Position numbers and translations under genes: made by a program
Origin: a virus
Taxonomy: Duplodnaviria > Caudoviricetes
DNA length: 64,000 nucleotides
IMG/VR virus record: IMGVR_UViG_3300032030_002802
Span: 135,079-199,078 of that record
Strand: one strand, 5' to 3'
Shown: positions 10,726 to 46,966 of the stretch, piece after piece
Numbering within the stretch: the stretch's first letter is position 1
Layout: the number at the start of each line of letters is the position of its first letter
The notes under the pieces: model-generated
Told to the model about the DNA's origin: nothing
Database searches by the model: none
Seen by the model: only the letters and a program-made list of their open reading frames with translations

Positions 10726-11760
10726 TTAGAGGACCGCGCCAGGACCCCAGCCGGCCTTGCCGTCCCTCTGCGGGAACTTCAGGGTGGTGCCGGTGGGAAC
10801 CGTCGAGGGCTTGCCCGTCTGGTTGAAGCGGGCGAGCGCGACGCCGGCGATGTTGCCGAGGCCGAAGCCGCCGGTCCAGTAGGACCACATCTCGAGGAAG
10901 TACGCCTCCTTCTTCATGAACATGGTCCAGTCGTCAAGGTAGTAGGCCTTGCCGAGGAACTCAGGCGCAGCGAAGAAGTACACGTAGTTGTCCGGAACGA
11001 GAGCGGACTTGATCGTGAAGAGGCACTTGACCCCCATGATCGTGTCCATCGTGAGGCCGTTCTTGAACATCTCCTGCGCAAGGTCGCCACCGACCTCGTC
11101 GCGCTTCAGCTTCAGGAGGTCCTGGGCCGTCACGTCATTCATGAGGCAGATGTAGTTGCGGAGGTTGAACTTGCCCTGCTTGTTGCCGCGAGGCATGAGC
11201 TTCTTGGCTTCCGCGAAGGTCTCGCGGTTGAGCGGGTCGTAGAAGTCAATCAACTGCTTCTTGCCGGTGACGATGTTGACACCGTTCGCGTCGCAGTTGA
11301 AGATGATCGAGTTGATCGTCTCGATGAACTTGCCGTCGATCGTCGCGAGGCCGTCCTTGATGGAGTTGTCGACGAGCACCTTGCGGATGTCCATACGGTA
11401 CGTACGGAGCTCGTCGATGTCCTTCTGGAACTTCGGCGTGAGGACGCGGGTGAACGGAATCGCGAAGCGCGGCCCGGTGATGTACTCGCCGGTCGGCGCC
11501 GTCTCGAACGGCACCCACATCGCGCCGGGACCGTCGGGTTCGATCTCCTCGATGATCTGGAGGCGTTCGTCGAGCGTGCGGTCAAGCATGTCGTTGGTCG
11601 CCTTCTGGGGCGGGAGGATCTTGAACGCGAACGAGTCTTCGCGGATGTGGTTGCGGATGTAATCCGTAGCCGCGTCCTCCGCGACTTTCACGTTTCCGCG
11701 CTGGAGCTGCTCGAGGATACGGGCGTTCATCATCGCGGTACTGACATTCTGTGTGGACAT
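10726..11760 (-). CDS. Major capsid protein (HK97-like fold), 344 aa
   Basis: Follows protease, scaffold and decoration genes; IREDSFAFKILPP...PKFQKDIDELRTYRMDI pattern; strongly biased codon use. Confidence 0.8.
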   Translation of the reverse strand: MSTQNVSTAMMNARILEQLQRGNVKVAEDAATDYIRNHIREDSFAFKILPPQKATNDMLDRTLDERLQIIEEIEPDGPGAMWVPFETAPTGEYITGPRFAIPFTRVLTPKFQKDIDELRTYRMDIRKVLVDNSIKDGLATIDGKFIETINSIIFNCDANGVNIVTGKKQLIDFYDPLNRETFAEAKKLMPRGNKQGKFNLRNYICLMNDVTAQDLLKLKRDEVGGDLAQEMFKNGLTMDTIMGVKCLFTIKSALVPDNYVYFFAAPEFLGKAYYLDDWTMFMKKEAYFLEMWSYWTGGFGLGNIAGVALARFNQTGKPSTVPTGTTLKFPQRDGKAGWGPGAVL

Positions 11761-27107: not shown

Positions 27108-28700
27108 TCAGTCTCCGAACGACGCAGGGAAATTGGTAACCGTGCCGCCAAGAGCCTCTACGACTGCCTTGAGGGCCTTAGCCCTATCGGCCTCCGTGCC
27201 GAAATTAAAATACTTACCGGCAAGCGGCTTGACCGGCTTGCGCGAAGAGTCGATCAACCCCATATTCTCCAGATCCTCACGACGGATGACGCTGTTGTAC
27301 GCATAGTCATTGAATGCCCACGTGACACCCCAGGAGCTAACCTCGATGCCACCGGACCCCGAGGTAACCACTGAGCCGTCGGTAAAGCGGATCCCGCCGT
27401 TATAGCCGACGGACAGCTCGCCATCGAGGACGGCACCGGTGAAATCCGCGCTATCTGCCGTCACCGTACAGCCTGCTGGAAGCCCGAGCGCGGAAACCAG
27501 CTTCTCAGCCTCGGCGAAAGTCCGTCCCACAAACGTAATGTTCGCGAGGCCGGCACACCCCTGAAGTGCGTCTCTGTCGATATAGCGCACGCTAGGCGAT
27601 ATTGTCAGGCTGGTAAGGCCGCGGCACTGCCCGAACGCGTTAGCGTCGATGCGGGTCACGCCGTACGGAACCGTCACGTCGGTAAGACTAGTACAGCCGT
27701 AAAACGTGTAACTCTTAATACTCTGCATATTGGATGGCAGGGTTACCGCGCTCAGACTGGTGCAGCCCTGGAATACAGCGCCGCCAACGCCACCCACGCT
27801 GTCTGGCAGCACCACCTCACGCAAACTCGTACAGTTATAAAACACAGAGTTTCTAACACGCGTTACGCTAGCTGGTATCACCACGTTAGTGAGACTGGTG
27901 CATCCGGAAAACGACTGGGAGGCAAGCTCGGATATACCAAGCGGCAGCACCATGCTCTCGAGACCAGTGCAACCCCTGAACGCCCCTGCCCCGATAGCGG
28001 ACACACTGGTGGGGATCACCACGTTAGTGAGGCCGGTGTAATCCCTGAACGCCCCGCTGCCGATGCTCGTCACACCGGTGCCGATTCGCACAGACACCAC
28101 GTTGTCGAAATTAGTAATCATGCCAGCTGTCAGCTCGCCCTCTATGTTGAAAGAGGCGGCCGTCCTGCCCGCATACACTACGACGGTCTTCCGGGCAGCG
28201 GCCTTCTCAAGCGCCCACGCGCGGGCATTGGCATTCGACGCCGCAATGAAGTTATTCGTGGCGTAGAGCCGTAAACTGTCAACCCACTCAAACAACGCAG
28301 CTATATTCGCGTCAAGCGCATCAGCGATGTTCCTAGTATCACCAGCCAACGCCTCTACGCGCTTAACCACACCCGCATGCCGCGGCCCCAGGACAGACTG
28401 ATCGTACGCCCCGATCAGGTCGTTAACGGCATTGGTGTCGACGCCGCCGGAACCGCCGGAACTGCCTTCGCGCGGCTGTATGACCGTGCGGTCGTACTCC
28501 GCCACCACCTCGCGCACCGCGTTGGTGTCTAGCCCGCCTCCGGTACCGCCCTTGACGTCGACCACGACCAGGTCGTCGCGGTGAAGCGAGCCGAGACGGG
28601 CCTTGACTACCCCGTCGGCATCAAGGCGGCTACTGGCGCAGCTGGCCGTTAACGCCAGCACGATCGCCGTGACAACTCTTTTGTGCAGCATGTTTTTCAT
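27108..28700 (-). CDS. Secreted BspA-type leucine-rich repeat (LRR_5) protein, ~530 aa
   Basis: Signal-like KRVVTAIVLALTASC; about 8 repeats of IPxSVxxIgxxAFxGCTSLxxV; lower GC than flanks. Confidence 0.85.
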   Translation of the reverse strand: MKNMLHKRVVTAIVLALTASCASSRLDADGVVKARLGSLHRDDLVVVDVKGGTGGGLDTNAVREVVAEYDRTVIQPREGSSGGSGGVDTNAVNDLIGAYDQSVLGPRHAGVVKRVEALAGDTRNIADALDANIAALFEWVDSLRLYATNNFIAASNANARAWALEKAAARKTVVVYAGRTAASFNIEGELTAGMITNFDNVVSVRIGTGVTSIGSGAFRDYTGLTNVVIPTSVSAIGAGAFRGCTGLESMVLPLGISELASQSFSGCTSLTNVVIPASVTRVRNSVFYNCTSLREVVLPDSVGGVGGAVFQGCTSLSAVTLPSNMQSIKSYTFYGCTSLTDVTVPYGVTRIDANAFGQCRGLTSLTISPSVRYIDRDALQGCAGLANITFVGRTFAEAEKLVSALGLPAGCTVTADSADFTGAVLDGELSVGYNGGIRFTDGSVVTSGSGGIEVSSWGVTWAFNDYAYNSVIRREDLENMGLIDSSRKPVKPLAGKYFNFGTEADRAKALKAVVEALGGTVTNFPASFGD

Positions 28701-28723
28701 GTCGATAAGTCCTCGCTGTCTGT

Positions 28724-28752
28724 ATTGTACCATGATTCGCCAAAATACACAA
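28724..28752 (-). promoter_or_regulatory. sigma70-like promoter TTGTGT-N17-TACAAT (extended TG)
   Basis: Intergenic, between the RNAP stop and the LRR gene. Confidence 0.55.
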
Positions 28753-28764
28753 GATGGTACCGCC

Positions 28765-31700
28765 TTACTGGCTTAAGATGCTCACGGGGTCGTTCGCGCC
28801 GATCTCGCCGCGCCTGTACGCCCGAATCGCATCGCGCGCGGTCACGAACACACGCGGCCTGGCCTTCGACTGCGGAGCCGTCAGCCTGGCGAGACCGAGG
28901 GTCATCTCCATCATGGGGACGTACCGCGGCGACCGCAGGTCGGTGGTGGAGAACAGGTTCTTGCTCGGAAGCATCTTCTCGATCGCCTCGGCGACGGCCT
29001 TGTCGCTGGACGGGACGTGGAAGTTCATCGTGTCCCCGTCGTGATCGGCGGTAAAAGCCTTCTCGACGACCGGGTTCATCCGCATGGTGTTGCCCTCGAC
29101 GAGCGACGGCCAGAACGCCATGAGGTTGAACTTGTGCCACGTCGGCGCGCGGTCGAGGATGACCGGCCTGCGGCCCATCTCCTCGAGCAGCAGGTCCTTG
29201 GCCACCGGCTCGCGCTTCTCGATCAGCTCGGCCGCGCGCTCCTCGGAGTACCCGCGCCTGCGAAGCCCGCGGATGACGTAGTCCTTGTAGAGCGTCCACG
29301 CCTCGTTCTCCGGGATGCCGCACTGGTCCATGTCGTAGTTCGGCTCGGGGCTGATGACCGCGCGGCCGACCGAGTCGACAGCCTTGGATATGACCTTCGA
29401 CTGGAACAGCCCGAGCTTCGGACTTGTCCCTATTACCTGGCGGATGGCGCCCTTGAGCCGCTTCGCCTGGCCCTCGGGGCTGATCGGGTCGCCAAGCCCG
29501 TATGCAGCCTTGACAGCGTTGTACACGTTCAGCCGCTCCTCCGTGAGCCCGCTGTCCGGTACGTCCTTCTTCAGCTGCGAGAACGCGTCGGCAGATTCGA
29601 TCACGTCGCGGTACAGCTCGTTGATGTCGCTCACGAGGGCCGTGTCGCCCACCTTGGCGATCGGGCGGAACATCGGCGGAATGACCGGGATCTTGGTGAT
29701 CATCCAGTCCTTCGGCTCGACGCCCTGCTTCTTGCACCCGGCCAGGTAGCCGAGCACCTTCACGGCGTTGTCGCGGGCGGACCCGCGGGACTTGCGGACT
29801 ATGTCGCGCTGGCGGCGTATCTCCGCGTCGACGTCGATCGCGCCGAGCGCGGCCTGGAGCGCCTTGCCGCCTGTCATGCCGTTCAGCTGCTCCTCGCCGG
29901 ATATGACGGCCTGGAGCTTCTTGCCCGTGAGCCCGAGCAGCCTGCGGACGGGCTCCTCCATTACCGGATTCGGCACAGGCTCCGGAAGGGCTATCGCGGC
30001 CCACCGGCTGCGGTTTCCGTTGCCGCCGGTGAGGTACGGGTCGAACAGGCCGCCCTTGATCTCCTTCAGCTCGTCGTTGAGCATCCTGGAGTTCTGGATC
30101 ACGCGGCCGCCGGTCAGCTTGTCGGTATCGGCGTCGGTCATCGGGAGGATGTCGGTCGCGCGCTGCCCCTCGACTACGTTGATCCCGCCGGCGCGGAGGA
30201 GGTTCATGGCCTTCTGGTACACGAACGGGACCTGCGGCATCGGAAGCGGACCTCCGCTCCTGACGGCCTTCCAGTACTCCTCGTTCTTCGTGCCGCGGAT
30301 CGTCTGGACGTCCTTCATCACCTCGGTCGCGCCGTGCGCGATCAGGGCGTAGGTGTCGAGACCGGAGTTAGAAACAAGGCAGTCCGAGGCGCAATACTTG
30401 TGCGACCCGGCTACCGTTATGTCGTAGAGGCATATCTCGTCGTCCGGGCCGTGCTTGGGATCCTTGTACGGCTCCACCCGCGTAACAAGCACTGGAACGC
30501 TTCCCAGCGTATACGCCGTGTCCACGCCGACATACTCGTGCGGCATAGCGGCCACCTCCTTCACCAGCCACTTCTTGGAAGGAGGTATGTCCCCTGGACG
30601 CATGTATCTGGCCACTAGGCGAACCATGGCCCTGCACGCATCAGCGGACAAGCCGAGATAGGAGTAGTGACGAATCTCGCCGTTAACGCGCTTATGCAGA
30701 TCCCGAACCGAGACCGGTGCGCCGAGCCTGCCCTGCAGCCAGGATGCAAGGCGCTCGTTCTCGGCATGGGTGAATCCCTGCGTGGATATCGTGCCTGACG
30801 GACTGCCGGTAGGGACGCCGTTCTTAACGTGCCCAACGATGCACCCGTCGTCCACGAACCACGCCACTATGCCGACGTCGCCTATGCGGCTGAGGTCGAC
30901 ACGGTCTAGGTTCTTGCGTCCGAAGCTGCCGTCCGGCTGCCTGTAGAACATGTCCCTGAGGGGAATGACTATGTCGTGCCTGTGCAGCTCGTAGTACGAG
31001 ACGCGTACGCCCTCTCCCGACCCGTACCCGGAACGGCTCTTGCCCTGCGTGCTGCTCCGGCTGGACACGAGTGCACCGAGCGAACGCACCTTCCAGCTGA
31101 CATACATGTCCTGGTGGTGGCTGTGCTGCTCGTTGAAGTACGCCATGTTGGCGGTCTTCCCGCCGCGCACCTTCCACAGCCCGCCGTGCACGTTGCATAT
31201 TGCCCCGTCCCCGAGCATCGACCCCATGAGCAGGGACATCTGGTCATGCGTGGGTACATACCCGTAGCTGGTCAGCCAGTCGCCGGGGCGGACATCTCCG
31301 GCCAGTATCTCGCCGCGGTCCGGCGAGTACAGATGGTGCTGCCGGGTCACGTGCATCGTCTTCCCGGTGTACACCACGCGCTTCCTGGCGCAGTTGTCGC
31401 TGCCCGGAAGCCCGTCCACCGAAATGCTCAGCACCTCCGATACCTTCCCCTTCCGGCAGAACCAGTTGGTCACGAGCGAATAACCCCAGCTGCCGTCGGC
31501 GAACCGGGTCCAAACGTACTCAGGGATGCGCTTCTCCACTATATGGCCTATCGACTCCTCGCCGTGAAGGACGCGGATAGGCTGAGACGCGATGAAGCAC
31601 ATGCGCTTGGCACCGGTCTTGCCGCCCTTGGCCGGCTGCAGGTCGGCGGTGTATCCGCCTGCACCGCCCTTTGCGGAGATCTTCTTGTCGGCCAGGTGGT

Positions 31701-34410
31701 GCATGGCGTGGAAATACACGTAGCCGTCGCCTATGCCGTGCAGCGTGCGTCCGGTCTCCGGGTCGAACACGTCCGCCGTGGGGCTGACCCCGGCCGCGGC
31801 GAGCTGGTTGGACGCCCAGCGGGCCCAGCCCTCTGGCGGAGGGTCCTGCGGGATGCGCACCTGCCGGCCCGTGGCCTTGGCGAGCTTGCCGAGAGCGGTC
31901 TCGATAAGCTGGCCGGGCGCGACCCGCGACGGGATGCCCATCGGGTTCATGAGGATGTCGTACGGCTCGTTCGTGGCCGCGTCGCGCGGCATCTTGTCGT
32001 CCGGCACGATCCGGCCAACGACGCCCTTCAGCGCGAAACGCGGGCTTAGCTTGTCGGCGATCTGCATCGGGGGCGTCGCCTTGACGTTGACCTTCGCGCG
32101 ACCGCGGAACACGGACGAGCTGACCACGGTGCCGGGGTAGTCGTGGTCCCACACCTGGGACTTGTCCGTGAACGCCCCGCGCAGGACCTTGCTGAGCTTC
32201 CCTAGGTTCGCGTCCTCGGCCGTCAGCAGCTTCGGCCCGACGGCGACGGCGATCGGGTCGCCCTTGTTGAGGACCGTCCCCTCCTTGACGACGCCGTTGT
32301 CGTCGAGGGTGGCGTACTGCTCCTTGGTGAAGCGCTTCGGGAACGCGGACATGTACTTGTTGAGCCCGAGCGTGCCGCCGTCCCGCGGGTCCGACTCGAA
32401 TCCGTAGAGACGGTCGGTAGCGAGCTTCTTGGCGGCGGACTCGCTGATGACGATGGCGTCCTCGTAAGAATAGCCCTTGTACGGCAACCACGCCATGCGC
32501 AGGTTGACCCCCATCGACAGCCCGCCGGTCTTCTTGTCCACGAAGTTCGACGCTGCAAGCATGTCGTCCGCAGCCACCTTGTCCCCGACCTTGACGGTGG
32601 GGGTGTAGGTCAAACCGGTGAGCCCGTTGAACGGGAAGTCGGTCACTGTCTCGACGAAGTGCTTCTTGCCCTGCGCGTCCGTCACGGTCACGCCCTTGTC
32701 CGTGACCTTCGTGACGACGCCCTCGGCTGGCGACCGCAGCGTGCCGAGACGCCGGCCGTAGTGCTCGCTCCAGGTCATCTTGCCGTCCGGCATCAGAGAG
32801 TCGACGAGCGGCACCTCGCCCTTGGCCGTGGGCAGGTACTGCCCCCAGAACTTCGCGCCGTAGAACTGGCGCCCGCCCTGCACAGACGTGGGCATGGGGT
32901 TGAGGTTCACGTTCGACGAGAACAGCCCAGACATGCTGGGCACGAAGTAGTCCACCTCGTCGCGCGGCACCATCTGCACGCGTCCGCCCTTCATGGCCGG
33001 GATGCGCTCCGCCTTCGGATCAGGGTTCGGAAACCCGATGACCGAGTCCGAGGCCTTGTCGCACGCTACGTACTCCCTGCGCCCCTGGCGGTTAAGAAAA
33101 AGCGAATACAGCCTGCCGTCGGACCCCTTACGGGCGTGCACGCTGAGACGGGCGTCAACGCCGATCTTCTCGTTCTCGGGACCGGCCAGCACGTCGATGT
33201 AGTTGAGGTTGCCTGGGTTCACCTGCCGCGCCTCGTCCGTCACCACGTCCGCCGACCCGATGCCACCCTCGCCCATGCGGGTGACGCGCATCATCTGCTC
33301 CTCGAGCGCCATGGGGTTCGAGTTGTCCCCCGGCATGGCGAGGCCAGACCCCTGCAGGAGCTCGTTGTGCCACCCAGAGAACGCGCCGCGCCCTACAGGC
33401 TTGAGCGACCCGGCACGGGAGATCTTCGCCATGATGTTGCGCGACAGCTTGCCGGCGTCCTTCTCTATGCGCTCGCGGTACAGGTCCTCGATGCCGAGCA
33501 CGTTGGCGAAACCGGGATTGTCGCGGTCGTCCGGCTTCTCCTCCCCACGGTTGACGTTGAACATCTTGGACGCGGCGCGGAGAAGCACTTCCGGGGTGAT
33601 GCCCTCGGCTGCGATGCCGAGGGTCCTGACCGTGACGCCGGGGTCAAGGGCGAACTTCGGCAGCGTGTCCGCAAGGTACCGCTCCTTCGACACGAGGTCC
33701 TGGGCGGTGGCGTTATAGCCGGCGAACGCGCTGTAGAGCTTGTCGACCGCCGACCGCCCGGCCATGCTCGCGGCCTTCGCCGCATTGGCGTGGGCCACGT
33801 CCGCGCCCCAGGCCTTGACCATCTGCTGGTCTGACACGCCGAGGGCCTTGAGAAGCGGATACAGCGGCATGTTGGCGTGCCCGACGTTGACCGTCACCAC
33901 GCCGGTGGACGGCTCCATGCGCAGGCGGAACCCGCGGCCCGTGCCGGGGCGGACGTTGAACTGCGTCTCGACGTCGCCAGACCGGCGGACGCGGGTGTAC
34001 ACGCCCGGCCGGAGCCTGAGCTGGTTGGCCACCGTGTACTCGCTGCCGTTGTTGATGACCGTCCCGCGGTCCGTGTAGTACGGGACGTGCATGACGACCT
34101 CGTCCTTCTCGTCCACCACGGCGTTGTCGGCCTTCCGGATGAGGCGGAAATGCCCGCTGACCGGCGTGTGCAGCGGCTGGTCGTTCAGGAGCGCGTGCTT
34201 CTGCTGCGCGAGCGTGAACTCCTGCGGGCCGGTGTACCTGACGTCAGACAGCTCAAGCCTGTACGACTTGTTCTCAAGCGGGAAGCGCCTCTTGAGCGCC
34301 TCGAGCGTACCGGAGTAGATTCCGGCACGCGCGGCCTTGGGGTCGTCGAACGCCCGCAGAGTGACGCCCTGCGGGACGATGGGCTCGTCGTCTGTAATAG
34401 TGTCTGCCAT
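28765..34410 (-). CDS. Phage DNA-directed RNA polymerase: beta subunit fused to N-terminal half of beta', intein-containing (1881 aa precursor)
   Basis: ATG at 34410 with AGGAGGAG RBS. Beta motifs INNGSEY..QL, GYSYEDAIVIS, DKLSPRFALKG, NPMGIPSR; beta' motifs GGLFD, PVIPPMFRP, GRAVISP, RAPTWH, TADHDGD. Confidence 0.92.
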   Translation of the reverse strand: MADTITDDEPIVPQGVTLRAFDDPKAARAGIYSGTLEALKRRFPLENKSYRLELSDVRYTGPQEFTLAQQKHALLNDQPLHTPVSGHFRLIRKADNAVVDEKDEVVMHVPYYTDRGTVINNGSEYTVANQLRLRPGVYTRVRRSGDVETQFNVRPGTGRGFRLRMEPSTGVVTVNVGHANMPLYPLLKALGVSDQQMVKAWGADVAHANAAKAASMAGRSAVDKLYSAFAGYNATAQDLVSKERYLADTLPKFALDPGVTVRTLGIAAEGITPEVLLRAASKMFNVNRGEEKPDDRDNPGFANVLGIEDLYRERIEKDAGKLSRNIMAKISRAGSLKPVGRGAFSGWHNELLQGSGLAMPGDNSNPMALEEQMMRVTRMGEGGIGSADVVTDEARQVNPGNLNYIDVLAGPENEKIGVDARLSVHARKGSDGRLYSLFLNRQGRREYVACDKASDSVIGFPNPDPKAERIPAMKGGRVQMVPRDEVDYFVPSMSGLFSSNVNLNPMPTSVQGGRQFYGAKFWGQYLPTAKGEVPLVDSLMPDGKMTWSEHYGRRLGTLRSPAEGVVTKVTDKGVTVTDAQGKKHFVETVTDFPFNGLTGLTYTPTVKVGDKVAADDMLAASNFVDKKTGGLSMGVNLRMAWLPYKGYSYEDAIVISESAAKKLATDRLYGFESDPRDGGTLGLNKYMSAFPKRFTKEQYATLDDNGVVKEGTVLNKGDPIAVAVGPKLLTAEDANLGKLSKVLRGAFTDKSQVWDHDYPGTVVSSSVFRGRAKVNVKATPPMQIADKLSPRFALKGVVGRIVPDDKMPRDAATNEPYDILMNPMGIPSRVAPGQLIETALGKLAKATGRQVRIPQDPPPEGWARWASNQLAAAGVSPTADVFDPETGRTLHGIGDGYVYFHAMHHLADKKISAKGGAGGYTADLQPAKGGKTGAKRMCFIASQPIRVLHGEESIGHIVEKRIPEYVWTRFADGSWGYSLVTNWFCRKGKVSEVLSISVDGLPGSDNCARKRVVYTGKTMHVTRQHHLYSPDRGEILAGDVRPGDWLTSYGYVPTHDQMSLLMGSMLGDGAICNVHGGLWKVRGGKTANMAYFNEQHSHHQDMYVSWKVRSLGALVSSRSSTQGKSRSGYGSGEGVRVSYYELHRHDIVIPLRDMFYRQPDGSFGRKNLDRVDLSRIGDVGIVAWFVDDGCIVGHVKNGVPTGSPSGTISTQGFTHAENERLASWLQGRLGAPVSVRDLHKRVNGEIRHYSYLGLSADACRAMVRLVARYMRPGDIPPSKKWLVKEVAAMPHEYVGVDTAYTLGSVPVLVTRVEPYKDPKHGPDDEICLYDITVAGSHKYCASDCLVSNSGLDTYALIAHGATEVMKDVQTIRGTKNEEYWKAVRSGGPLPMPQVPFVYQKAMNLLRAGGINVVEGQRATDILPMTDADTDKLTGGRVIQNSRMLNDELKEIKGGLFDPYLTGGNGNRSRWAAIALPEPVPNPVMEEPVRRLLGLTGKKLQAVISGEEQLNGMTGGKALQAALGAIDVDAEIRRQRDIVRKSRGSARDNAVKVLGYLAGCKKQGVEPKDWMITKIPVIPPMFRPIAKVGDTALVSDINELYRDVIESADAFSQLKKDVPDSGLTEERLNVYNAVKAAYGLGDPISPEGQAKRLKGAIRQVIGTSPKLGLFQSKVISKAVDSVGRAVISPEPNYDMDQCGIPENEAWTLYKDYVIRGLRRRGYSEERAAELIEKREPVAKDLLLEEMGRRPVILDRAPTWHKFNLMAFWPSLVEGNTMRMNPVVEKAFTADHDGDTMNFHVPSSDKAVAEAIEKMLPSKNLFSTTDLRSPRYVPMMEMTLGLARLTAPQSKARPRVFVTARDAIRAYRRGEIGANDPVSILSQ
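30367..31599 (-). mobile_element. Intein with LAGLIDADG homing endonuclease (411 aa)
   Basis: AKRM|CFIASQPI... LLMGSMLGDG and VAWFVDDG blocks ...LYDITVAGSHKYCASDCLVSN|SGLD. Removal restores KRMSGLDTYAL (equivalent of QRFGEMEVWAL). Confidence 0.92.
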
Positions 34411-34418
34411 GTCTCCTC

Positions 34419-35960
34419 CTAGTACCCCTGCGCATACTGGGCGTCGTCCCCTCCGCCACCGCCGTACATGTTGTACAGGATCATGGCCGGCAGCCCCAAA
34501 GACCCGGCCCCGCCGTAGAACCCCATCTGGCCGAGGTGCCCGGCGGCGTCTCCGTAGTTGCCCTGGGATGCGCTGCTCGCCATGTTGTACAGCGTATCGG
34601 CCTGCCAGCCGGTCTTTCCGAGCGCAACACGCCCTGCGGGCATGATGGTGTCCTTGCCCCAGTTGAACACGTTCTTCGTGGCCTGCCACGGGTGCATGAC
34701 CGTGTTCTGGATGCTCGCACCGGGATGGCGCGCGAAGTTGTACAACCCGCGTACCGGACGGCCTATGCCGTTGCGGGCCGTGTCCCATATGATACGCCCG
34801 GGACCGCCACGGCCGACAACCGTCTTCTTTATGCCCTCCACCGGATTCGCGAACGTGCCTACGGCCTTGAACGGCATAGCAACGGTCTCGCCCATGGCGT
34901 CTACGCCGTTTGCCACCATGTTGCGCGCGCCCTGCATGGCGCGGGCGCCCCACGACGCCCCGGTAGTGCCGGCGCTCGTGGCCGCCGAGGTACCGCGTAT
35001 CGCACTGGACAGAGCCCTCGTGCCCGCCATGACCCCGCGCCCTGCAAGCTTTCCGGCCGCCCCGAAGCCGGCCGTCGCAAGGGTGTCACCAGCCAACGCG
35101 CCGACCGCGGTATTGCCGAACCGGTTAGCGCCCCCGATCCAGCTTCCGCTGTTGCCGCGCAGATCACTGTCGTGGAAGTTGTTCTCTATGAGCTGCCGTT
35201 TCGCCTCGAACGCCGCATCTGCGTTCGCACGCGTGTTCTGGTACGACCTCTTCCTCTTGAGTGCTTCGGTGCTGTTGCCGTACGAACCCCAGTCCAGGAG
35301 GTACTCATTTCCAAGACGAGCCAGCTGCGCGGCGTTGTGCGCCGCGCTGTTCGCCTGTATCTGGAAATTGTTGGCCACGTCATGGCCGATGGTGCCCCAG
35401 TCCTGGTTGGCGGTCCGGTAATACTGCTTCATCCAGTCGGAGTATGACGTACCCTTCGGGGCGCTGGTGAGGTACGACAGGTTAGACCCTACCGCATCGG
35501 CAATGAGCTTGAACGGGGCGGCAATCGCAGTGCCGATGCCCTTGCCCACGGCCGTATCCCCCCATGTCGACACGCCACCGTTAGCCTGGATCTCACGCAT
35601 GATCTCGGCCCGGCTCTTGCGCTTGACGATCTCAGGGTTCTTCCTGGCATAGGCCTCGAACGCCGCCTGGTTGCGCTTCCTCCGCGCCACGACGTCCGGC
35701 AAATTGTCGTACGCCTTGTTCCCGGTAAGCCCGAACTTGCCGGCCTGGGCCCGCTGCGCCGCCTGCGCCTGCTGCCTGCGCGACTGCTCCATCTTGGCCC
35801 CGTAGTCCGCCGGAAGGATCCGGTTGGTGACTACCGCAGGGGCCGCGCGCTTGTACAGCGCACCGCGGATGAGCCCGCCGACAGTCACCCCCGGCTGGCC
35901 CCTGACGCCGTGCATGTGCCCGACGAGCAGGCCCGATAGATCTGTGCCACGCGTGCCCAT
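34419..35960 (-). CDS. Hypothetical basic Gly/Ala-rich protein between the two RNAP genes, 513 aa
   Basis: ATG at 35960 coupled to the beta'-C stop; leader ends GALYKRA; glycine zippers; (R/M)HP(G/W) repeats. Confidence 0.75.
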   Translation of the reverse strand: MGTRGTDLSGLLVGHMHGVRGQPGVTVGGLIRGALYKRAAPAVVTNRILPADYGAKMEQSRRQQAQAAQRAQAGKFGLTGNKAYDNLPDVVARRKRNQAAFEAYARKNPEIVKRKSRAEIMREIQANGGVSTWGDTAVGKGIGTAIAAPFKLIADAVGSNLSYLTSAPKGTSYSDWMKQYYRTANQDWGTIGHDVANNFQIQANSAAHNAAQLARLGNEYLLDWGSYGNSTEALKRKRSYQNTRANADAAFEAKRQLIENNFHDSDLRGNSGSWIGGANRFGNTAVGALAGDTLATAGFGAAGKLAGRGVMAGTRALSSAIRGTSAATSAGTTGASWGARAMQGARNMVANGVDAMGETVAMPFKAVGTFANPVEGIKKTVVGRGGPGRIIWDTARNGIGRPVRGLYNFARHPGASIQNTVMHPWQATKNVFNWGKDTIMPAGRVALGKTGWQADTLYNMASSASQGNYGDAAGHLGQMGFYGGAGSLGLPAMILYNMYGGGGGDDAQYAQGY

Positions 35961-37813
35961 CAGTACTCTCCCTTCGTGGATATGTCCCTGCCGAGCTCGA
36001 CGCCCTTCGCGAGCGACGGAATGGGGTTGGTGCTGTGAAGCTCTGAATGCGCCCCCTGCTGCGCGTCCTCGAGCAGCCGGTCCTTGAGGTACGACGTCCC
36101 GAGACGCGCCATCCAGTTCCCTGAGTACGCCGGCGACTCGGCCACGCTGACCATGTGCGGCATGACGCCGGGGGCTGTCTTGTTCGCGGTGACCTCGGTG
36201 CAGCCGTGCCGCTTGAGCGCCTTGACGACGCTCGGAGTCACTCGAGTCCCAATGGTGTAGTGCAGCACCGGGGCCTCGAGATACTGCCCCACGGCCTTGT
36301 CCAGGGGCACCTGCGCCGACCCCTCGCGCGGCGTGTACCCGCTCGCCCACGCGCTGTAGCGCACTATGTCGCCAGGAAGCGCGTCGCCCTCGGAGTCGGG
36401 GTTCTCCACCTGCACGTTGTTGACCAGGGCGCGCGAGAGGATCTCCACGTTGCGGCGGTTGACGCCGTAATGCGAGTCCCTGAACGCCTGGGTGAAGCGG
36501 TTCGTGAAATACCTGCGTCCCTCGCCGATCCCCTTGTACGCCACGACGTCGGCCGGGGACACGAGACCCGACGACACCGCGTCGCCGGCCTCCACCTTGT
36601 CGCCGGGCTTGACCGACACCTTCAGCGCGGCCGGGACGTATATCTTGTTGTCGCGGTCGTCGTCTAGCACGACGTACTGGCCGCCCTGCGGCGCGTCCTC
36701 GATCGCGGACACGGTGCCGTCGACGGAGGACACGGACGCCTTCACGTCATACGCCTTGGGCACCATCGTGAGGTCCTTGAGCGCGTCGAACCCGACGTAC
36801 GCGCCGAGGTCGGAGCGCTTTCCGCTGTGTTTCGTGTTGAGAGAATTTTGGGCGATCTGCTCGCCCAAGGCCGACGCCGCGTTCACGCCGGCGTTGTACC
36901 CGATCTCCGGGAACCGGCCGGTCTCGCGTATGCCCACGCACATCTTGCACAGGCCGTCCTTGCACCCGCACGTTATCGGCGAGCGGACAACTATCTCGTC
37001 CTCCCCGGACGCGCGGATCTTGTCCAGCACGGGCTTGGTGATGACCGTGCCCGGCTTGAACCCCGCGACCTCTGACTGCAGCACGGACCCAACGCTGTCG
37101 TTGTCGTCAACCGAGACTGGAACGCCGTTGGCCGTGCCACAGTCGTCCGTTGTCACGACCTGGTCGATCGCGGCCGCGTTCATCATCTTGCTGAGGTAGC
37201 CGCCCTTCTGCGTGCCGAGCTTGGTGCCTATGACGCCGAGGCGCGCGCCGTAGCCTGCGGCCCAGTACTCGTGCGGCTTGAGGCCCTCGGCGTACGCGCT
37301 GCCGATGAAGATAGGAACGATCTTGCCGTCGCTGTCAGTGTAGGTGCCGGGAGACGTCAGCATGGCCCCAAGCTGGTTCTTGTTTCCGCGGGCCTTGTAC
37401 TTCGCCTGGATCGCAAACGGGTTGTTGTTCGCGAGGGCGTTCGAGTAGGTCTCGTCGGTAAGCCGCTTCGTCGCCTCGCCGTACAGGGCCTCGATCGCGT
37501 CGTCCTTCTGGGCCTGGGTAAGCCTGCTGTCGGACAGTATGGCCTGCTCCTGACGCTTCACCTCGTCCAGCAGCGGCTGCTTGTCCACAACCGGCACCAG
37601 GTCGTTGAGGGTTATCGTGGACCCCTCGTCGAACGCCGCGTTGCGCCCGAGCTGGACCAGCTTCCAGCACACCTCGCGGTAGCGCTCGGGATGCTCCCGG
37701 GCGAGCTGGCCGAGAAGCGCGTTGATCTCGTCCTGCCCGAGCGTGCGCGTGTAGTCGCGCATCTCGGGAGGAAGGGCCTCGTTCACGAGGAGCTGCCCAG
37801 GTGTTGCGAGCAT
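35960..37813 (-). CDS. RNA polymerase beta' C-terminal half (RpoC2-like), 617 aa
   Basis: ARGNKNQL; bridge helix EGLKPHEYWAAGYGARLG...GGYLSK; DDCGT; RSPITC..GLCKMC; trigger loop LGEQIAQNSLNTKH. Confidence 0.92.
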   Translation of the reverse strand: MLATPGQLLVNEALPPEMRDYTRTLGQDEINALLGQLAREHPERYREVCWKLVQLGRNAAFDEGSTITLNDLVPVVDKQPLLDEVKRQEQAILSDSRLTQAQKDDAIEALYGEATKRLTDETYSNALANNNPFAIQAKYKARGNKNQLGAMLTSPGTYTDSDGKIVPIFIGSAYAEGLKPHEYWAAGYGARLGVIGTKLGTQKGGYLSKMMNAAAIDQVVTTDDCGTANGVPVSVDDNDSVGSVLQSEVAGFKPGTVITKPVLDKIRASGEDEIVVRSPITCGCKDGLCKMCVGIRETGRFPEIGYNAGVNAASALGEQIAQNSLNTKHSGKRSDLGAYVGFDALKDLTMVPKAYDVKASVSSVDGTVSAIEDAPQGGQYVVLDDDRDNKIYVPAALKVSVKPGDKVEAGDAVSSGLVSPADVVAYKGIGEGRRYFTNRFTQAFRDSHYGVNRRNVEILSRALVNNVQVENPDSEGDALPGDIVRYSAWASGYTPREGSAQVPLDKAVGQYLEAPVLHYTIGTRVTPSVVKALKRHGCTEVTANKTAPGVMPHMVSVAESPAYSGNWMARLGTSYLKDRLLEDAQQGAHSELHSTNPIPSLAKGVELGRDISTKGEY

Positions 37814-38468: not shown

Positions 38469-40058
38469 TCAAATCACGCCCTGGGCGTTCAGCCTGCGCA
38501 TGAGCTTGCTGATCTTGGCCTTGTTGGCCCTGATGTAGGCCGCTGCCCCGGGGTCGGCCGCCTCGACTCCTACCTTGCGGTGGCCGCGGAGCCGTCTCCG
38601 GACCTTCGCCAGAACGGCCTTCTCGTCCACGCCGGACTCCGGGTCTGCGACGGTGCTGTCAGCTGCCCCTAGCAGCGCGTCGCGCAGCGTGCCGACGCTC
38701 ACCATGTCGTCTAGCCCTGCGGCCTTCATGTTCATGGCGCGGTCCACGAGCCAGTCGCGGCCGCCCATGGCCGCAAACGCCTTCGCCGACCCGCGGGCTA
38801 CCTTGTTCCACGCCCGGCGGATGATGCCGTCGTTCGGACCGTTCGCGAACTGCGCGTCGATGGCCGCGTCTACCGCGCGGCGGTACGTCTCGGGGTGCTT
38901 GCCGCGAAGTATGTCGACGGCCTTCCGGCGGTCGAAGTTCAGCCCGAAATCAGTGCTGTTCAGGATGCTCGACAGGGCCTTCGGGTCCTGCAGGACCACG
39001 TTGTACACCTTGGACATGTCGGCCGCGGCCATCTTCATGAGGCCGGCAGGGTCCGTCCCGGCGGCTTCGGCGATCTTGACGTACGGCTCCGCGAGGGTGC
39101 GGTTCGGCTTCCCCTCCACGACGTCCATGTAGATTGGCAGCATGGCCGTGATCGCCGCGCACGTGTCGGCCGACGCCTGCTTCTCCTTGCCCTCCTCGCC
39201 CTCCACGAGCGACGGCGTGCCGCCCTCCGTGCGGAACACGATCCTGGTCGGGCGGTTGATGTCCTTCTTGAGCTTCTCCTCGGGGAACTCGCGGTCCATC
39301 ACCTTCTTCGTGATGTACGCCGTGGCCCCGGTGCCGGCGAGCAGTGCGAGGAGATACGCCGCAGTGGGGTAGCGCATGGTATTCGTCAGGCCGTCGGGCA
39401 GGAGGTCAACCCACCCGGCAACCTTCACGGACGTGTCCTTAGACAAGACGCGCTCGGCCGGGCCGATGATAGACATCATGACCTCAGCGCGCTTCGACGA
39501 ACCCGCCATGGCGTCGACATAGGCCTGCTGCGCGGCCTTGAGCTTGCGCTTGAGACGGCGCTCCTGCATCGCGTCGAACATGCGCGACACGACCTCGTAA
39601 GAAAGCAGCCCTCCGGCGGTGAGGCCCAGGGCGTTTGCCACGATCGTGCCGACGCTGTTGGGTCCAGGGTTGCCGTCGCCCGCGGCCTTCACCTCGTCCT
39701 TCTCCTTGGACTTGGGCGGCGCGATCTTGGCGGCGTACCTGCCGGCCTCGCGGAACTGCTGCCCGCCGTTGGCCGTGACCTTGGTCTCCCCCGGCTTGGC
39801 GTCGCGCATGCCGGTGTAGCCGTCGCCGGCCGTCTTCGGGAGGGTGAGCACTATCGTGTCCTCGTCCGTAGACTCCGGCTTCCTGTCCCGCAGCTCGCGG
39901 AACCTGCGGAGGAGGTTGGCGGCCGCGCTGACGCCGGCGCCGCCCAGGACGCCGGCCATGAGCGCAGTGACGAACCGGCGGTTGTTGATGTCGCCGAACG
40001 GTACTGGCAACTGGGTTACGGAATTTGTGCCTCCAGCTGACTTGATCTGCGTGTCCAT
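38469..40058 (-). CDS. Multi-module membrane-type protein punctuated by K-x-A, 529 aa
   Basis: Three hydrophobic GxxxG helices; KSA, KTA, KAA, KRA, KVA, KQA, KIA, KMA. Confidence 0.8.
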   Translation of the reverse strand: MDTQIKSAGGTNSVTQLPVPFGDINNRRFVTALMAGVLGGAGVSAAANLLRRFRELRDRKPESTDEDTIVLTLPKTAGDGYTGMRDAKPGETKVTANGGQQFREAGRYAAKIAPPKSKEKDEVKAAGDGNPGPNSVGTIVANALGLTAGGLLSYEVVSRMFDAMQERRLKRKLKAAQQAYVDAMAGSSKRAEVMMSIIGPAERVLSKDTSVKVAGWVDLLPDGLTNTMRYPTAAYLLALLAGTGATAYITKKVMDREFPEEKLKKDINRPTRIVFRTEGGTPSLVEGEEGKEKQASADTCAAITAMLPIYMDVVEGKPNRTLAEPYVKIAEAAGTDPAGLMKMAAADMSKVYNVVLQDPKALSSILNSTDFGLNFDRRKAVDILRGKHPETYRRAVDAAIDAQFANGPNDGIIRRAWNKVARGSAKAFAAMGGRDWLVDRAMNMKAAGLDDMVSVGTLRDALLGAADSTVADPESGVDEKAVLAKVRRRLRGHRKVGVEAADPGAAAYIRANKAKISKLMRRLNAQGVI

Positions 40059-43519: not shown

Positions 43520-44398
43520 CTACTCCCTTATGGCGTTCAATGTTCCTACTCCGAGGCCGGCCAGGGACCCGACGAGCGCGCCGCGCCCGGCCCCGAACAG
43601 CCCGCACCTGACCCCGGCCTCCACCAGCTTGTCGCGGAGCACGTCCTGGGGCAGCGACGCGCTGTCCGCCGCGCCGTTGGCCAGGCCCACCCCTAGCGCG
43701 CCGGCTCCCAGCCCGCCCAACGCCGTGCCCCACAGGGCGCCCTTGGCCGTGCCGGACACCACGTGGCCGAGAAACGACCTGCGCCGCTTCGACCTGGCCG
43801 ACGCGCGCTCGACGGCGTCCTCCAGCCTAGGGGCCAGCCGACCGTAGAGGGCGTTGATCTCGTCCGGGCGGAACATGATCTGCGCCTGCTTCTCGATGCG
43901 CCTCTCCTTACCGTGATGCGGAAGCCCGACAAGACCAAGTGCCTTAAGACGACGAAACAACCGTGCATCCTCACGTACCAGGTCATACATACGGCCAAGA
44001 TCCAGATTCCGCGGCATCCTTGCCCTTCGTCTCGCGTACCACGCAGCTAAAAGCGGTGACACCTCCTTCTCAGCGACTATCATGGCATCTGACGGCATAT
44101 TCCCCATCGGCCCAAGCACCTGAAGAGTATTATCGGCATCACGTAAAACGGTCGGCACTGAGCCAGCCAGAACATCACGACTGAAGATAGCTGGCGAAAG
44201 GTCGTCGGCCCGCTTCTCCTTCCGCTCCGGAAGGCCTGCGTGCGGGGTCTCCGCGAAGTGCCGCGCGTCCTCGTCGGAGATGCGCCGCGACAGTGCCGCA
44301 ACCCGGTTGCGCAGTGAACGGCTTCCGTGGAACTCGCCCTTGTTGTAGGCGTGCACCATCCCGAACAGACGCTGCTGAGATTTGGACCTAGCTGGCAT
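43520..44398 (-). CDS. Hypothetical protein with MPARSKSQQRLFGM N-terminal module (DUF3008-like) and C-terminal glycine zippers, 292 aa
   Basis: GGAGGAG RBS; modules separated by EKRA and EKQA. Confidence 0.7.
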   Translation of the reverse strand: MPARSKSQQRLFGMVHAYNKGEFHGSRSLRNRVAALSRRISDEDARHFAETPHAGLPERKEKRADDLSPAIFSRDVLAGSVPTVLRDADNTLQVLGPMGNMPSDAMIVAEKEVSPLLAAWYARRRARMPRNLDLGRMYDLVREDARLFRRLKALGLVGLPHHGKERRIEKQAQIMFRPDEINALYGRLAPRLEDAVERASARSKRRRSFLGHVVSGTAKGALWGTALGGLGAGALGVGLANGAADSASLPQDVLRDKLVEAGVRCGLFGAGRGALVGSLAGLGVGTLNAIRE

Positions 44399-46931
44399 GT
44401 CCGCTCCTCCCTGTCACGGCCTGGCACTGCAGACCTCTATCTCTCGTGAAGCCGCTTGGCGGCGTCCTCAAGCCGCTCGTGCCGCCATACGCAAAACCTA
44501 CCTTGCCGCTAACACCTGGCGTAACAGCGCACTGTATAAACAGCGGGGTGTCAAGCGTCAGGTATGACCCGCCGAACCTGCGAAGTAACGACATAGCCGC
44601 AACAGTGTCAAACGACTCGATGAACTGGCTATACAGTCTCGCCGGCACCATATACGAGTGCATCCCGAAGCAATCGCCGCCAGACCAAACCGCATACTGA
44701 GGACCGTGTCCATATCCGCCCGGCAAGCCTGGAATGCGTGACAGCCGCCCCCATCGTCGCAGCGTCCACCCCAGCTGCACAATCCCGCTTACGCCAGACG
44801 GATCCGGAATGTTAGCCAAAAGGCGCCCAAGGACATCCTCAGCATCGTCATGGGGATACGCGTCATCCTCGAATATCACCACAAACGGAAGGCCTAAAGA
44901 CTGCGCCATGCGCACTATAGCGGCATGGCCCAACATTACACGTGCGACTAGCGTACGTCCTACCGTCCGGAACCCAGTCACCGCACGTGGAAGATTCCCG
45001 CAGTGCGGGAAACTCTCCCTAAACAGCGCGTAGAACCTGTCTCGCCTCTCCTGGTCTATGCCGAATACGAAAGAGTTACTGAAAAAATCCTCTAACGACA
45101 TGGAGGGGCTATAAAACCGCGGCGCACAGGCCGAACCAACGCCCGCAGCCTGCACCGCTGGCCGTTCCTTACTACTCTGCGGAGACCGGTCTTGATCACT
45201 GGCAAGGACAGGCTTCAGGACCATCCTGTCCATTACACGGCCGACTAGCGACAAACCGCGGGCGCTATTAGCCGAAACGAGATTGCACCCGCGCTGCGGC
45301 GTAAACTCGTCCCCATACCCCCTGGAGTTCCGGTCGTTCAACCAGAAATCACCGACGGTAAGATCCGCGCATGACAACATGCCGTGACCGAAAGGACAAC
45401 GCCTGCACATCTGCAGGCTGTCAAATATAAAATCCTTGCGTTCCACAGTGCGTGACGACCCGTCGTCAAACCCCACTCTGATGGCAAACCCGTGCTGGTA
45501 GCGGAAGTCCAGTGCCGAAACGCGCTTCCCAGCCGTGGCCTGCAGGTCGTCGACGAACTTAGCGAGTTTCGCCGGACGGGAGTACCCGCGACACCTGAAG
45601 TCGACGCATATAAGGTTGTCCGGAGCACCCCCGAGCAGCTTTTTAAGTGCCCTGACGTGGCACGGCGACCCTATGTACATAACCTCGCGGCCGGTACGCA
45701 AATCGGCACGCAGCTGCTCCATGTCTGGCAACGGGCAGAAACTGTACTTGCTCTTGGACAACCGAGCTGCATACTCCTCTATGGTCGTAACGCGCTCCGG
45801 CACGACTCGCTTGAAATCGGACGAGAACGCCGCACCATACACAACCCCGCCACGCTCGAAAACCGAACGCGCGAGCTCGAGCATGGCACCACCGGACGAA
45901 GACGCCGCACGAACCGCCGGGTCACGGGAGTACCCGCAGTAATCAACCGGGCTCGACTTAAGGCACATGTCGATGAAATCCCTTGAACGTGCTACCTCCG
46001 CCGCTATGCGCTCGAATATCTCGTCGTAGTTCCTGACTACCTCGTCCTCGATGCGGACATGCAGCAACTTAATCAGGTGCTGCATGCGGTGGTCGTTCAG
46101 GAGCAGCTTTATGCGGGGGACCCTATACAACAGGGCAAAGCAGAACCCGTGGTACGAGTTAGTCACCACACGGTCCGCCCCCCTGATGAGGCCTAGGAAA
46201 TCGCGCGGATCAACTGCGCCTGTCTTTACGCTGGCGTTGTTACAGACGACACTGCCGTCTGCCGTCGTACGCGACAAGGCCGTAACAGAGCCACGGACCC
46301 TGTACGTAAACGTGCCGCCTGCATAACCTGCCCCGCGCGCTACGCCATGCCACCTGTCATACAGCAGAAACACCGGGTCCACCGTCACGAACCGGTCACC
46401 CCAATAACCGTAACCCTCGCGCAGCCCAGCGGCGATAAAAACGCCCATCGACTTGGTCAAAGCATCCGGGAGAGACCGCCAAGTCGGATTCAAGCCGGCA
46501 CCATACGAGAACACGCACCGTCGCTGCAATTTAGAAATAAGCCGAACTGACAGTACCGGACAACGCAATCTCAAGTTTAACGCCTGATCCCCTCCCACCA
46601 CGACATGGCTGAACCTGTCGAGAAACCCGGTCGGGGCGTCACGCATACTCACTATGTTCAGGCACTCCCGCTCAAACCGGTGGAAAAACAGGTCGTCGCC
46701 ACGGTCGATGCCGAACCGGCTGGGATCTATGTCCATGGTGACGAGCGTCTTGCCGAACTCGTCCCTGAAGTACCGCTGGAGCGCATATGTCTGCAACCGC
46801 TGGCCGTAGTTGCCCTGGTCGAGCAGTATCGTGAGATTCGCGACCGGAATACCGTCACGGCCGGCCATGACGTGGGCGAGCTGCCGCTCCGCCTCGCACC
46901 CGGCCGACACCTCAGTTACATTCTGTGTCAT
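44388..46931 (-). CDS. Fusion: polysaccharide pyruvyltransferase + F420 hydrogenase beta-like + GT25-like
   Basis: NYGQRLQTYAL, VVGGDQ, VDPVFLL, VVTNSYHG; SSSGG..GGVVYGA, SKSKY, GSPCHV, ADLTVGDFW; LGHAAIV..VVIFEDDA. Confidence 0.8.
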   Translation of the reverse strand: MTQNVTEVSAGCEAERQLAHVMAGRDGIPVANLTILLDQGNYGQRLQTYALQRYFRDEFGKTLVTMDIDPSRFGIDRGDDLFFHRFERECLNIVSMRDAPTGFLDRFSHVVVGGDQALNLRLRCPVLSVRLISKLQRRCVFSYGAGLNPTWRSLPDALTKSMGVFIAAGLREGYGYWGDRFVTVDPVFLLYDRWHGVARGAGYAGGTFTYRVRGSVTALSRTTADGSVVCNNASVKTGAVDPRDFLGLIRGADRVVTNSYHGFCFALLYRVPRIKLLLNDHRMQHLIKLLHVRIEDEVVRNYDEIFERIAAEVARSRDFIDMCLKSSPVDYCGYSRDPAVRAASSSGGAMLELARSVFERGGVVYGAAFSSDFKRVVPERVTTIEEYAARLSKSKYSFCPLPDMEQLRADLRTGREVMYIGSPCHVRALKKLLGGAPDNLICVDFRCRGYSRPAKLAKFVDDLQATAGKRVSALDFRYQHGFAIRVGFDDGSSRTVERKDFIFDSLQMCRRCPFGHGMLSCADLTVGDFWLNDRNSRGYGDEFTPQRGCNLVSANSARGLSLVGRVMDRMVLKPVLASDQDRSPQSSKERPAVQAAGVGSACAPRFYSPSMSLEDFFSNSFVFGIDQERRDRFYALFRESFPHCGNLPRAVTGFRTVGRTLVARVMLGHAAIVRMAQSLGLPFVVIFEDDAYPHDDAEDVLGRLLANIPDPSGVSGIVQLGWTLRRWGRLSRIPGLPGGYGHGPQYAVWSGGDCFGMHSYMVPARLYSQFIESFDTVAAMSLLRRFGGSYLTLDTPLFIQCAVTPGVSGKVGFAYGGTSGLRTPPSGFTRDRGLQCQAVTGRSGHAS

Positions 46932-46966
46932 ACTCGTCATCTCTCCTTTCTCGGTCAACTGCGCAT

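Follow-up and report, generated by a model that had tools for sequence, protein, structure and literature searches.

The window examined here is the right-hand 64 kb (positions 135079-199078) of a 199,078-bp IMG/VR virus record with a CheckV completeness of 100%, and it holds the genes for what is likely to be the single multisubunit RNA polymerase (RNAP) of a tailed phage of ~199 kb: an enzyme with a two-chain core, one chain of which would be spliced from a precursor, with a sigma-like partner and with delivery in the virion. One chain consists of beta fused to the N-terminal part of beta' (beta::beta'N), while the C-terminal half of beta' (beta'C) is the product of a separate gene. This partition is standard and conserved, and may be ancestral, in a large phage clade of which most members are uncultured but some are in culture. 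As a layout in its own right it seems not to have been described before: our literature search, in which coverage was incomplete, returned no paper on the fusion-and-split arrangement. Coordinates marked G000 refer to the whole record, and all others to the window.

Two chains that divide one polymerase core

The gene for the fused chain (28765..34410, minus strand) forms a single uninterrupted frame in which the Pfam family RNA_pol_Rpb2_6 (beta) is followed by RNA_pol_Rpb1_1 and Rpb1_2 (beta'). We placed its start at the ATG at 34410, which is preceded by an AGGAGG Shine-Dalgarno sequence, and the translated precursor is thus 1881 amino acids (aa) long, including an intein that is described below; a longer open reading frame (ORF) of 2062 aa, extending up to 34953, was rejected as the gene. 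The N-terminal extein comprises beta residues 1-937 (31600..34410, minus strand; Rpb2_6) and ends in ...GGKTGAKRM. After the intein, the C-terminal extein opens with the last ~64 residues of beta (SGLDTYALIAHGA ... LLRAGGINV; 30175..30366, minus strand) and continues with ~470 residues of beta', equivalent to about 14-555 of the E. coli subunit (28765..30174, minus strand; Rpb1_1, Rpb1_2 and PDB chains). These boundaries were drawn from MAFFT alignments with Salmonella rpoB and rpoC, the numbering of which is shared with E. coli. In the alignments the beta C-terminus (LLRAGGINV, corresponding to ...SLGINIELEDE) passes straight into beta' at about residue 14, with extein residue 1001 as the last beta residue and the junction at about position 30175. 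The initial annotation of this DNA had described beta as running into beta' without a stop, had noted that the N-terminal zinc-finger cysteines of beta' were missing, and had located the chain end shortly after the catalytic loop, all of which is borne out. Indeed, the motifs that it quoted lie where it had put them (LLRAGGINV from 30201, GGLFDPYLTG from 30054, DHDGD at 29032-29046), this phage, Salmonella phage Arash and Vibrio phage D69 all have a gap of 31 residues in place of the four-Cys Zn ribbon, which Salmonella and Cobetia phage Carin-5 (with an unfused beta') have kept, and the chain of the present phage stops 88 aa past DHDGD, at about beta' residue 555.

Both double-psi beta-barrels of the polymerase were recovered on this chain. 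The beta-type barrel matched PF00562 (E 3.5e-39) and PDB beta chains (E ~1e-51), and its Lys-containing motif, IADKLSPRFALKGV, aligns with the E. coli motif GDKMAGRHGNKGV. The beta' barrel, with its DxDGD triad (TADHDGDTM at aa 1787-1795), matched PF00623 (E 7e-24), and the beta' part of the chain matched PDB beta' and cyanobacterial gamma chains at E ~1e-50.

The rest of beta' was found on a gene of 617 aa (35960..37813, minus strand), as the initial annotation had proposed. Its product matched RNA_pol_Rpb1_5 (E 7e-17), and phmmer aligned residues 3-487 to PDB beta' chains (E 9e-45) in a stretch that spans the F-loop and bridge helix, the second Zn site and the trigger loop; the four Cys of the second Zn site are all present (DDCGT, ITCGC, GLCKMC). 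By MAFFT the protein begins at about beta' residue 570 (E. coli/Salmonella numbering), and it is 28% identical to Arash gp216. The earlier view that the two barrels sit on one chain and the mobile catalytic elements on the other thus agrees with both the Pfam matches and the alignments. A six-frame search of the whole genome located one locus each for PF00562, PF00623 and PF04998, the last of these being the beta'C gene.

On the minus strand the beta'C gene comes first, followed by a gene of 513 aa (34419..35960, minus strand) and then by the fusion gene. The beta'C stop codon overlaps the start of the 513-aa gene (TGATG), the stop codon of the latter lies 8 nt ahead of the fusion ATG (TAG-N8-ATG), and no terminator-like site was found on the coding strand between the three genes, which are predicted to be translationally coupled. 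The intervening gene had been called unrelated to the polymerase, and we could assign no family to it: its product had no match in Pfam, PHROG or NCBIfam, and an Atlas search gave nothing above 0.84. The protein is Ala/Gly-rich and predicted to be all-helical, has only 8 homologues in a large protein database, and was modelled by AlphaFold2 with a mean predicted local distance difference test (pLDDT) score of 48. It is weakly similar to the gene directly upstream of the fusion gene in the relative L017. Another protein without a family match, of 529 aa, is encoded at 38469-40058 (minus strand), and its homologues (L011_530, L017_526, L014_554 and L016_476) adjoin the RNAP genes across the clade.

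An intein in the beta part

The beta part of the fused chain (~1880 aa as translated) had been read as continuous, and for this reason an insertion in it was overlooked. We found that aa 938-1348 (30367..31599, minus strand) are a 411-aa class-1 intein with a LAGLIDADG homing endonuclease, the excision of which is predicted to leave a mature chain of 1470 aa. The class assignment draws on a Pfam match (LAGLIDADG_2, PF03161, 40 bits), sequence motifs, an empty allele and a fold search. The intein begins with CFIASQ and ends with CLVSN, followed by Ser+1. Its insertion point, ...GGKTGAKRM|SGLDTYALIAHGA, is the MAFFT counterpart of E. coli beta GGQRF1270|GEMEVWALEAYGA, so that the invariant beta motif GGQRF|GEME is split. 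The empty allele belongs to the metagenomic relative L011, whose fused protein (P0002) is intein-free, has the length of our predicted mature product, 1470 aa, and aligns without gaps to exteins that are 98.4% identical; judged by this allele, the boundary lies exactly between M937 and S. At the DNA level the empty site reads GCCAAGCGCAT(A/G)|TCCGG.

Five allelic inteins from independent contigs are 45-71% identical. In all five, Cys1, T85-x-x-H88 of block B, H400, S410-N411 and Ser+1 are invariant, as are the acidic residues D131 and D250/D251 of the LAGLIDADG motifs LGDG and VDDG. An AlphaFold2 model built on the five-allele alignment exceeded a pLDDT of 80 in the endonuclease domain, and its best Foldseek matches were PI-SceI, the TliVMA intein, PI-PfuI and I-SceI, with I-DmoI also matched. 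The G+C content at third codon positions (GC3) is 0.805 in the intein and 0.92 in the exteins, as would be expected for a more recent arrival.

Intein-like inserts were also found in relatives. A search of a 5.8-billion-protein collection with the C-extein gave 963 matches at E<=1e-10, and among the best 120 clusters of these, 63 are intein-free at ~1455-1476 aa while 57 are longer. Pairwise comparison with the intein-free P0002 showed that the longer homologues carry inserts of ~340-440 aa, which start with Cys or Ser and end with Asn before a Ser or Thr, at extein positions ~126, ~412, ~647, ~788, ~799, ~937 (the site used in the present genome) and ~1255. An eighth, larger insert lies beside DxDGD at extein position ~1382, bringing the insertion sites to at least eight, and up to three inteins occur in one gene (P0020, 2585 aa). 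We had considered whether ~650 additional aa in P0046, P0053 and P0097 were a fused beta'C; BLAST rejected this, and they are the insertion beside the catalytic motif. In L011 the beta'C gene (L011:5090-8077) has a 378-aa LAGLIDADG_3 intein (C...HN|T) in the trigger-loop motif AQNSLN|TKHSG, at the equivalent of E. coli TMR933|T, a site that is empty in the beta'C gene of the present genome. The present genome and the 98%-identical L011 hold inteins at reciprocal sites.

Other interruptions and additions were of different kinds. In Vibrio phages D181 (L003:6968-12482) and D148 the fused gene is annotated as several ORFs, with a free-standing homing-endonuclease ORF in their midst; the interruption may represent an intron, or else an intervening homing-endonuclease gene, and not an intein. 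In the P0085-P0121 subclade the fused protein has an N-terminal extension of 190-680 aa that matches PF18823, with LysM in some members; on the P0068 contig, PF18823 was observed on a separate protein of 689 aa.

The same literature search, with its incomplete coverage, brought up no account of inteins in multisubunit RNAP genes of phages; introns have been reported in AR9-like RNAP genes, and inteins are known in Rpb2 homologues of eukaryotes and giant viruses (Goodwin et al., 2006; PMC1635734). The latter, like those of the PI-SceI type, resemble the intein described here in combining Hint and LAGLIDADG domains, within a conserved beta/Rpb2 motif, and the Rpb2 inteins also resemble it in being present in some close relatives and absent from others; here, however, the host protein is a bacteriophage RNAP and the penultimate residue is Ser. 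The RNAP genes of the clade are among the densest intein targets met in phage data, and because intein presence differs between genomes that are ~98% identical, they offer a good natural system in which to study homing in phage populations. The endonuclease would allow homing into intein-free alleles during co-infection.

Distribution of the partition and comparison with known polymerases

The layout is not peculiar to the present genome. Salmonella phage Arash (OQ632216) shows it in gp206 (1525 aa) together with gp216, as does D69 in 0261 together with 0264, PF00562 and PF00623 lie in one chain in 120/120 of the top clusters, and full-length relatives are present on 127 IMG/VR contigs of up to 226 kb. 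The clade comprises Arash, D69 and many metagenomic genomes, the latter measuring 150-226 kb. The beta'C gene was separate in every context inspected (L011, L012, L014, L016, L017 and the P0068 contig), with a variable location, either upstream with one to three intervening genes or 5-6 kb downstream. In a beta' tree (IQ-TREE, LG+C20+F+G4, 435 beta' columns) the fused sequences form one branch with support of 100/100, apart from five bacteria (100/99) and from three unfused phage sequences, those of Rhizobium Kleczkowskaviridae, Vibrio Va2 and 1.031.O (97/93). The architecture is thus standard in a clade with published cultured phages, a finding that the initial annotation had itself named as one that would lower the novelty.

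By way of longer beta'C relatives, we also found complete beta::beta' chains of ~2000-2700 aa (P0230, P0231, P0232, P0233, P0235 and P0244, on contigs of up to 197 kb), in which the junction likewise lacks the Zn ribbon. Four of these nest in the fused superclade (100/100), and the node joining the complete forms to Arash and D69 has a support of 94/89. Fusion together with loss of the Zn ribbon therefore defines the superclade, whereas the fission state of beta' varies within it, and with fully fused chains of ~2000 aa and split forms side by side, fusion and fission events are recorded within one lineage. As a separate observation, in the relative L014 a reverse transcriptase (RVT_1) and a Tad2-like protein are encoded (L014:22734-24572) 7-9 kb downstream of the RNAP genes. 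No host could be named for the present phage: a scan of genome contigs with P0002 gave no match, and one with an alignment hit only phage contigs, binned into metagenome-assembled genomes of six unrelated phyla.

The closest likeness is to Arash, D69, D181 and D148, which have the identical partition; in Arash the beta::beta'N chain of ~1525 aa is devoid of the Zn ribbon, the split falls at about beta' 553-568, and beta'C is a separate protein of ~606 aa. Homologues of the sigma-like gp10, the portal, the large terminase, the major capsid and structural proteins are common to these genomes and the present one. Arash and D69 belong to the same clade as the present phage in the beta' tree, but they share only ~30% identity with it, have the reversed gene order (the fusion first and beta'C 5-6 kb downstream), and lack both the 513-aa gene between the RNAP genes and the intein. 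Arash gp206 carries the published annotation 'beta' only, and the fusion is not mentioned in the paper (PMC10585845). More generally, the genes of the clade are labelled 'beta' or 'hypothetical', and their intein-bearing copies are mis-sized.

Each element of the partition has a partial counterpart elsewhere. RNAPs are highly conserved, and natural re-partitions of beta and beta' reveal which of the covalent links, and which of the accessory subunits, the enzyme can do without. In Helicobacter and Wolbachia, rpoB and rpoC form a single ORF in which the C-terminus of beta is joined to the N-terminus of beta', giving a chain of ~2900 aa with a complete beta' and Zn ribbon, accompanied by alpha2 and omega. 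The phage protein shares the head-to-tail joining, but its beta' is cut at about 555-570 and has lost the Zn ribbon, and neither an alpha nor an omega gene was found. In cyanobacteria and plastids, beta' is likewise split past the DxDGD region, into gamma and beta', and the gamma chain 8syi_D aligned with the phage chain at E 5e-50. Gamma is ~60-70 residues longer (query residue 1460 corresponds to about gamma residue 550 of 624), so that the phage cut is near, but not at, the cyanobacterial one, and gamma is not fused to beta.

Reviews of jumbo-phage RNAPs cover only the phiKZ/AR9 type. These enzymes are also phage-encoded, lack alpha and omega, have beta' split into N- and C-terminal parts, and include one virion-packaged set (PMC7598289, PMC7824862). 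They differ in having beta in two to three pieces that are never fused to beta', in occurring as two sets (virion and non-virion), in using no sigma70-family factor, and in being far more divergent from bacterial RNAP (PMC7598289, PMC7824862), whereas the present phage has a single set, in which an undivided beta is fused to beta'N, and also carries a sigma70-like gene. Another group for comparison is that of the mReC phages (Weinheimer and Aylward, 2020; PMC7481178), such as Carin-5, Kleczkowskaviridae, Va2 and 1.031.O, which are tailed, 130-200 kb in size, and carry bacterial-like beta and beta'. In these examples, however, beta and beta' are separate and unsplit; Carin-5 has a sigma gene next to them and retains the Zn ribbon, and the beta' of Kleczkowskaviridae, Va2 and 1.031.O forms a separate branch in the tree. 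The mReC paper describes phage beta and beta' genes and mentions fusion for crAss-like phages only (PMC7481178). Assignment of the present phage to mReC by capsid and terminase families was rejected: the mReC families of T4-type capsid (PF07068) and terminase (PF03237) were unmatched, the capsid homologue had no Pfam match, and the terminase gave only GpA_ATPase at 25.5 bits, slightly below the cut-off. Set against these systems, the clade is marked by a bacterial-like core of two chains that has both barrels on one chain and a partner of sigma70 type, and for which no alpha or omega genes were found.

Accessory factors, proposed virion delivery and rival explanations

The initial annotation stated that the window has no alpha, omega or sigma gene, and it called for a search of the remaining genome. 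For alpha (PF01000, PF01193) and omega (PF01192) the statement extends to the whole genome, as neither was found at the Pfam level in a six-frame search for which the controls were positive in 14/14 genomes. For sigma it is true of the window only, since a sigma70-like gene of 250 aa, preceded by a Shine-Dalgarno sequence, lies 4 kb beyond the left-hand end of the window (G000:130344-131093, minus strand). Its product scored 33.5 bits against Sigma70_r3, which exceeds the gathering score, matched RpoD_Cterm weakly, is 30% identical to Arash gp10, and has a C-terminal stretch that by eye resembles the helix-turn-helix of region 4.2. The polymerase is thus probably not without a sigma factor, and independence of alpha is plausible. 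A SNF2-family helicase may be a further associate in some relatives: in P0193 a beta'C homologue is fused to one, and in Arash the SNF2 helicase gene gp217 (L005:41261-42679) directly follows beta'C, its product being detected in virions, which suggests a RapA-like polymerase partner. In the present genome SNF2 gave a sub-threshold match only (G000:91605-91991).

Packaging in the virion had been suggested from the gene neighbourhood, and it finds indirect support. In the published mass spectrometry of Arash virions, gp206 ranked at the top of all proteins with 3516 spectra and 100% coverage, and gp216 (1210 spectra), the helicase gp217 (1148) and the sigma factor gp10 (467) were detected as well (PMC10585845). 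ORF-level BLASTP identified Arash homologues in the present genome of the portal, the large terminase, the major capsid protein (10726-11760) and several structural proteins of the baseplate region, along with counterparts of gp10 and of both RNAP genes, all shared proteins being ~23-33% identical. The RNAP genes sit in a one-strand block with Arash-type capsid, baseplate-region and other structural homologues, and in both phages their location amid genes for structural proteins is consistent with products that are made late and packaged.

The enzyme that we propose would be assembled from two chains. The first, made as an 1881-aa precursor, would become an active 1470-aa protein by self-excision of the intein (Cys1 ... 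Asn|Ser+1); it would join beta covalently to beta' ~14-555 with the Zn ribbon deleted, and would hence hold both double-psi beta-barrels, including the DxDGD Mg site. The second, of 617 aa, would provide the bridge helix, the second Zn site and the trigger loop. The core would work with the sigma70-like homologue of Arash gp10 and without alpha or omega, the covalent beta-beta' link taking over part of the alpha dimer's role in assembly, and it would be synthesized late, packaged into the capsid, delivered with the DNA and used to start early transcription. As Arash can be cultured on Salmonella and its virions contain the proteins, alpha-free assembly and virion delivery are directly testable.

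Several points weigh against this proposal. Packaging is read from an Arash orthologue that is only ~30% identical, and the Arash authors cautioned that abundant late proteins might contaminate virion preparations (PMC10585845). The alpha and omega result holds at the level of Pfam, so that a very divergent analogue, or alpha of the host, might still take part; sigma regions 2 and 4 had no Pfam match in the genome; and the beta' tree is unrooted and includes only five bacterial sequences. Regarding the intein, the penultimate residue is Ser, and not the usual His, in all nine alleles at the site, while other inteins in the fused-RNAP gene family terminate in GN or HN; a sequence comparison of the intein with the PDB gave no real match; and the quality of the model is low in the Hint part (overall pLDDT 65, template modelling score in Foldseek ~0.3).

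The doubts about packaging would be accommodated if the same two-chain polymerase were a non-virion enzyme, made after infection for middle and late genes, with the sigma-like factor redirecting host RNAP early on. A sigma70-family factor could equally serve host RNAP, and the phage has one RNAP set only, where phiKZ-type phages need two for the early and late phases. We consider this explanation rather unlikely, given that gp206 is the most detected protein of the Arash virion, accompanied by gp216, gp10 and gp217, and that the RNAP genes lie in a structural, late block in both phages. Quite unlikely, too, is a stronger version of the proposed enzyme, namely a self-sufficient virion holoenzyme free of alpha and omega, in which the tether would replace the alpha-dimer platform, and the separate mobile catalytic module and the frequent inteins in catalytic motifs would hold the enzyme inactive until assembly or splicing, as a control of timing or packaging and not as mere parasitism.

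The atypical features of the insert could alternatively mean that it does not splice, being either a permanent lineage-specific domain or a dead relic, in which case the chain would stay at 1881 aa or the gene would be inactive. Natural inteins without the penultimate His are nevertheless known to splice, and the insert interrupts an invariant motif between Cys1 and Asn|Ser, is missing to the residue from the allele of L011, keeps its splicing blocks and both LAGLIDADG acidic residues among divergent alleles that all end in VSN|S, and has intein endonucleases as its top fold matches. Moreover, as this is the sole beta gene of the genome, its inteins would have to splice for a polymerase to be made, and the exteins retain the GC3 of coding sequence; we therefore regard a non-splicing insert as highly improbable. 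We give next to no credence to an artefact of assembly or sequencing, such as a lost stop or frameshift at ~30.2 kb, as the source of the beta-beta' continuity. Nothing was found in its favour, and the junction, which the initial annotation had singled out as the place to look, is stop-free in the isolate genomes of Arash and D69, in each of the 120 best-matching protein clusters, which derive from independent assemblies, in the 127 IMG/VR contigs and in the fully fused relatives, with a conserved sequence.

Lastly, we noted several features in the remainder of the window, which has a G+C content of 65% and carries nearly all of its genes on the minus strand. Two BspA-type leucine-rich-repeat (LRR_5) proteins are encoded, both on the minus strand. 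The one at 27108-28733 has a low GC3 (0.69) and is 541 aa long, compared with 1177 aa in the close relative L011, while the one at 47002-51441 has a collagen-like repeat as well. An 856-aa protein (44388-46958, minus strand) combines polysaccharide pyruvyl transferase and F420-hydrogenase beta-like (FrhB/FdhB) domains, and the 16-kb block around its gene (~44-60 kb) has a G+C content of 58-61%, as against ~65% elsewhere.

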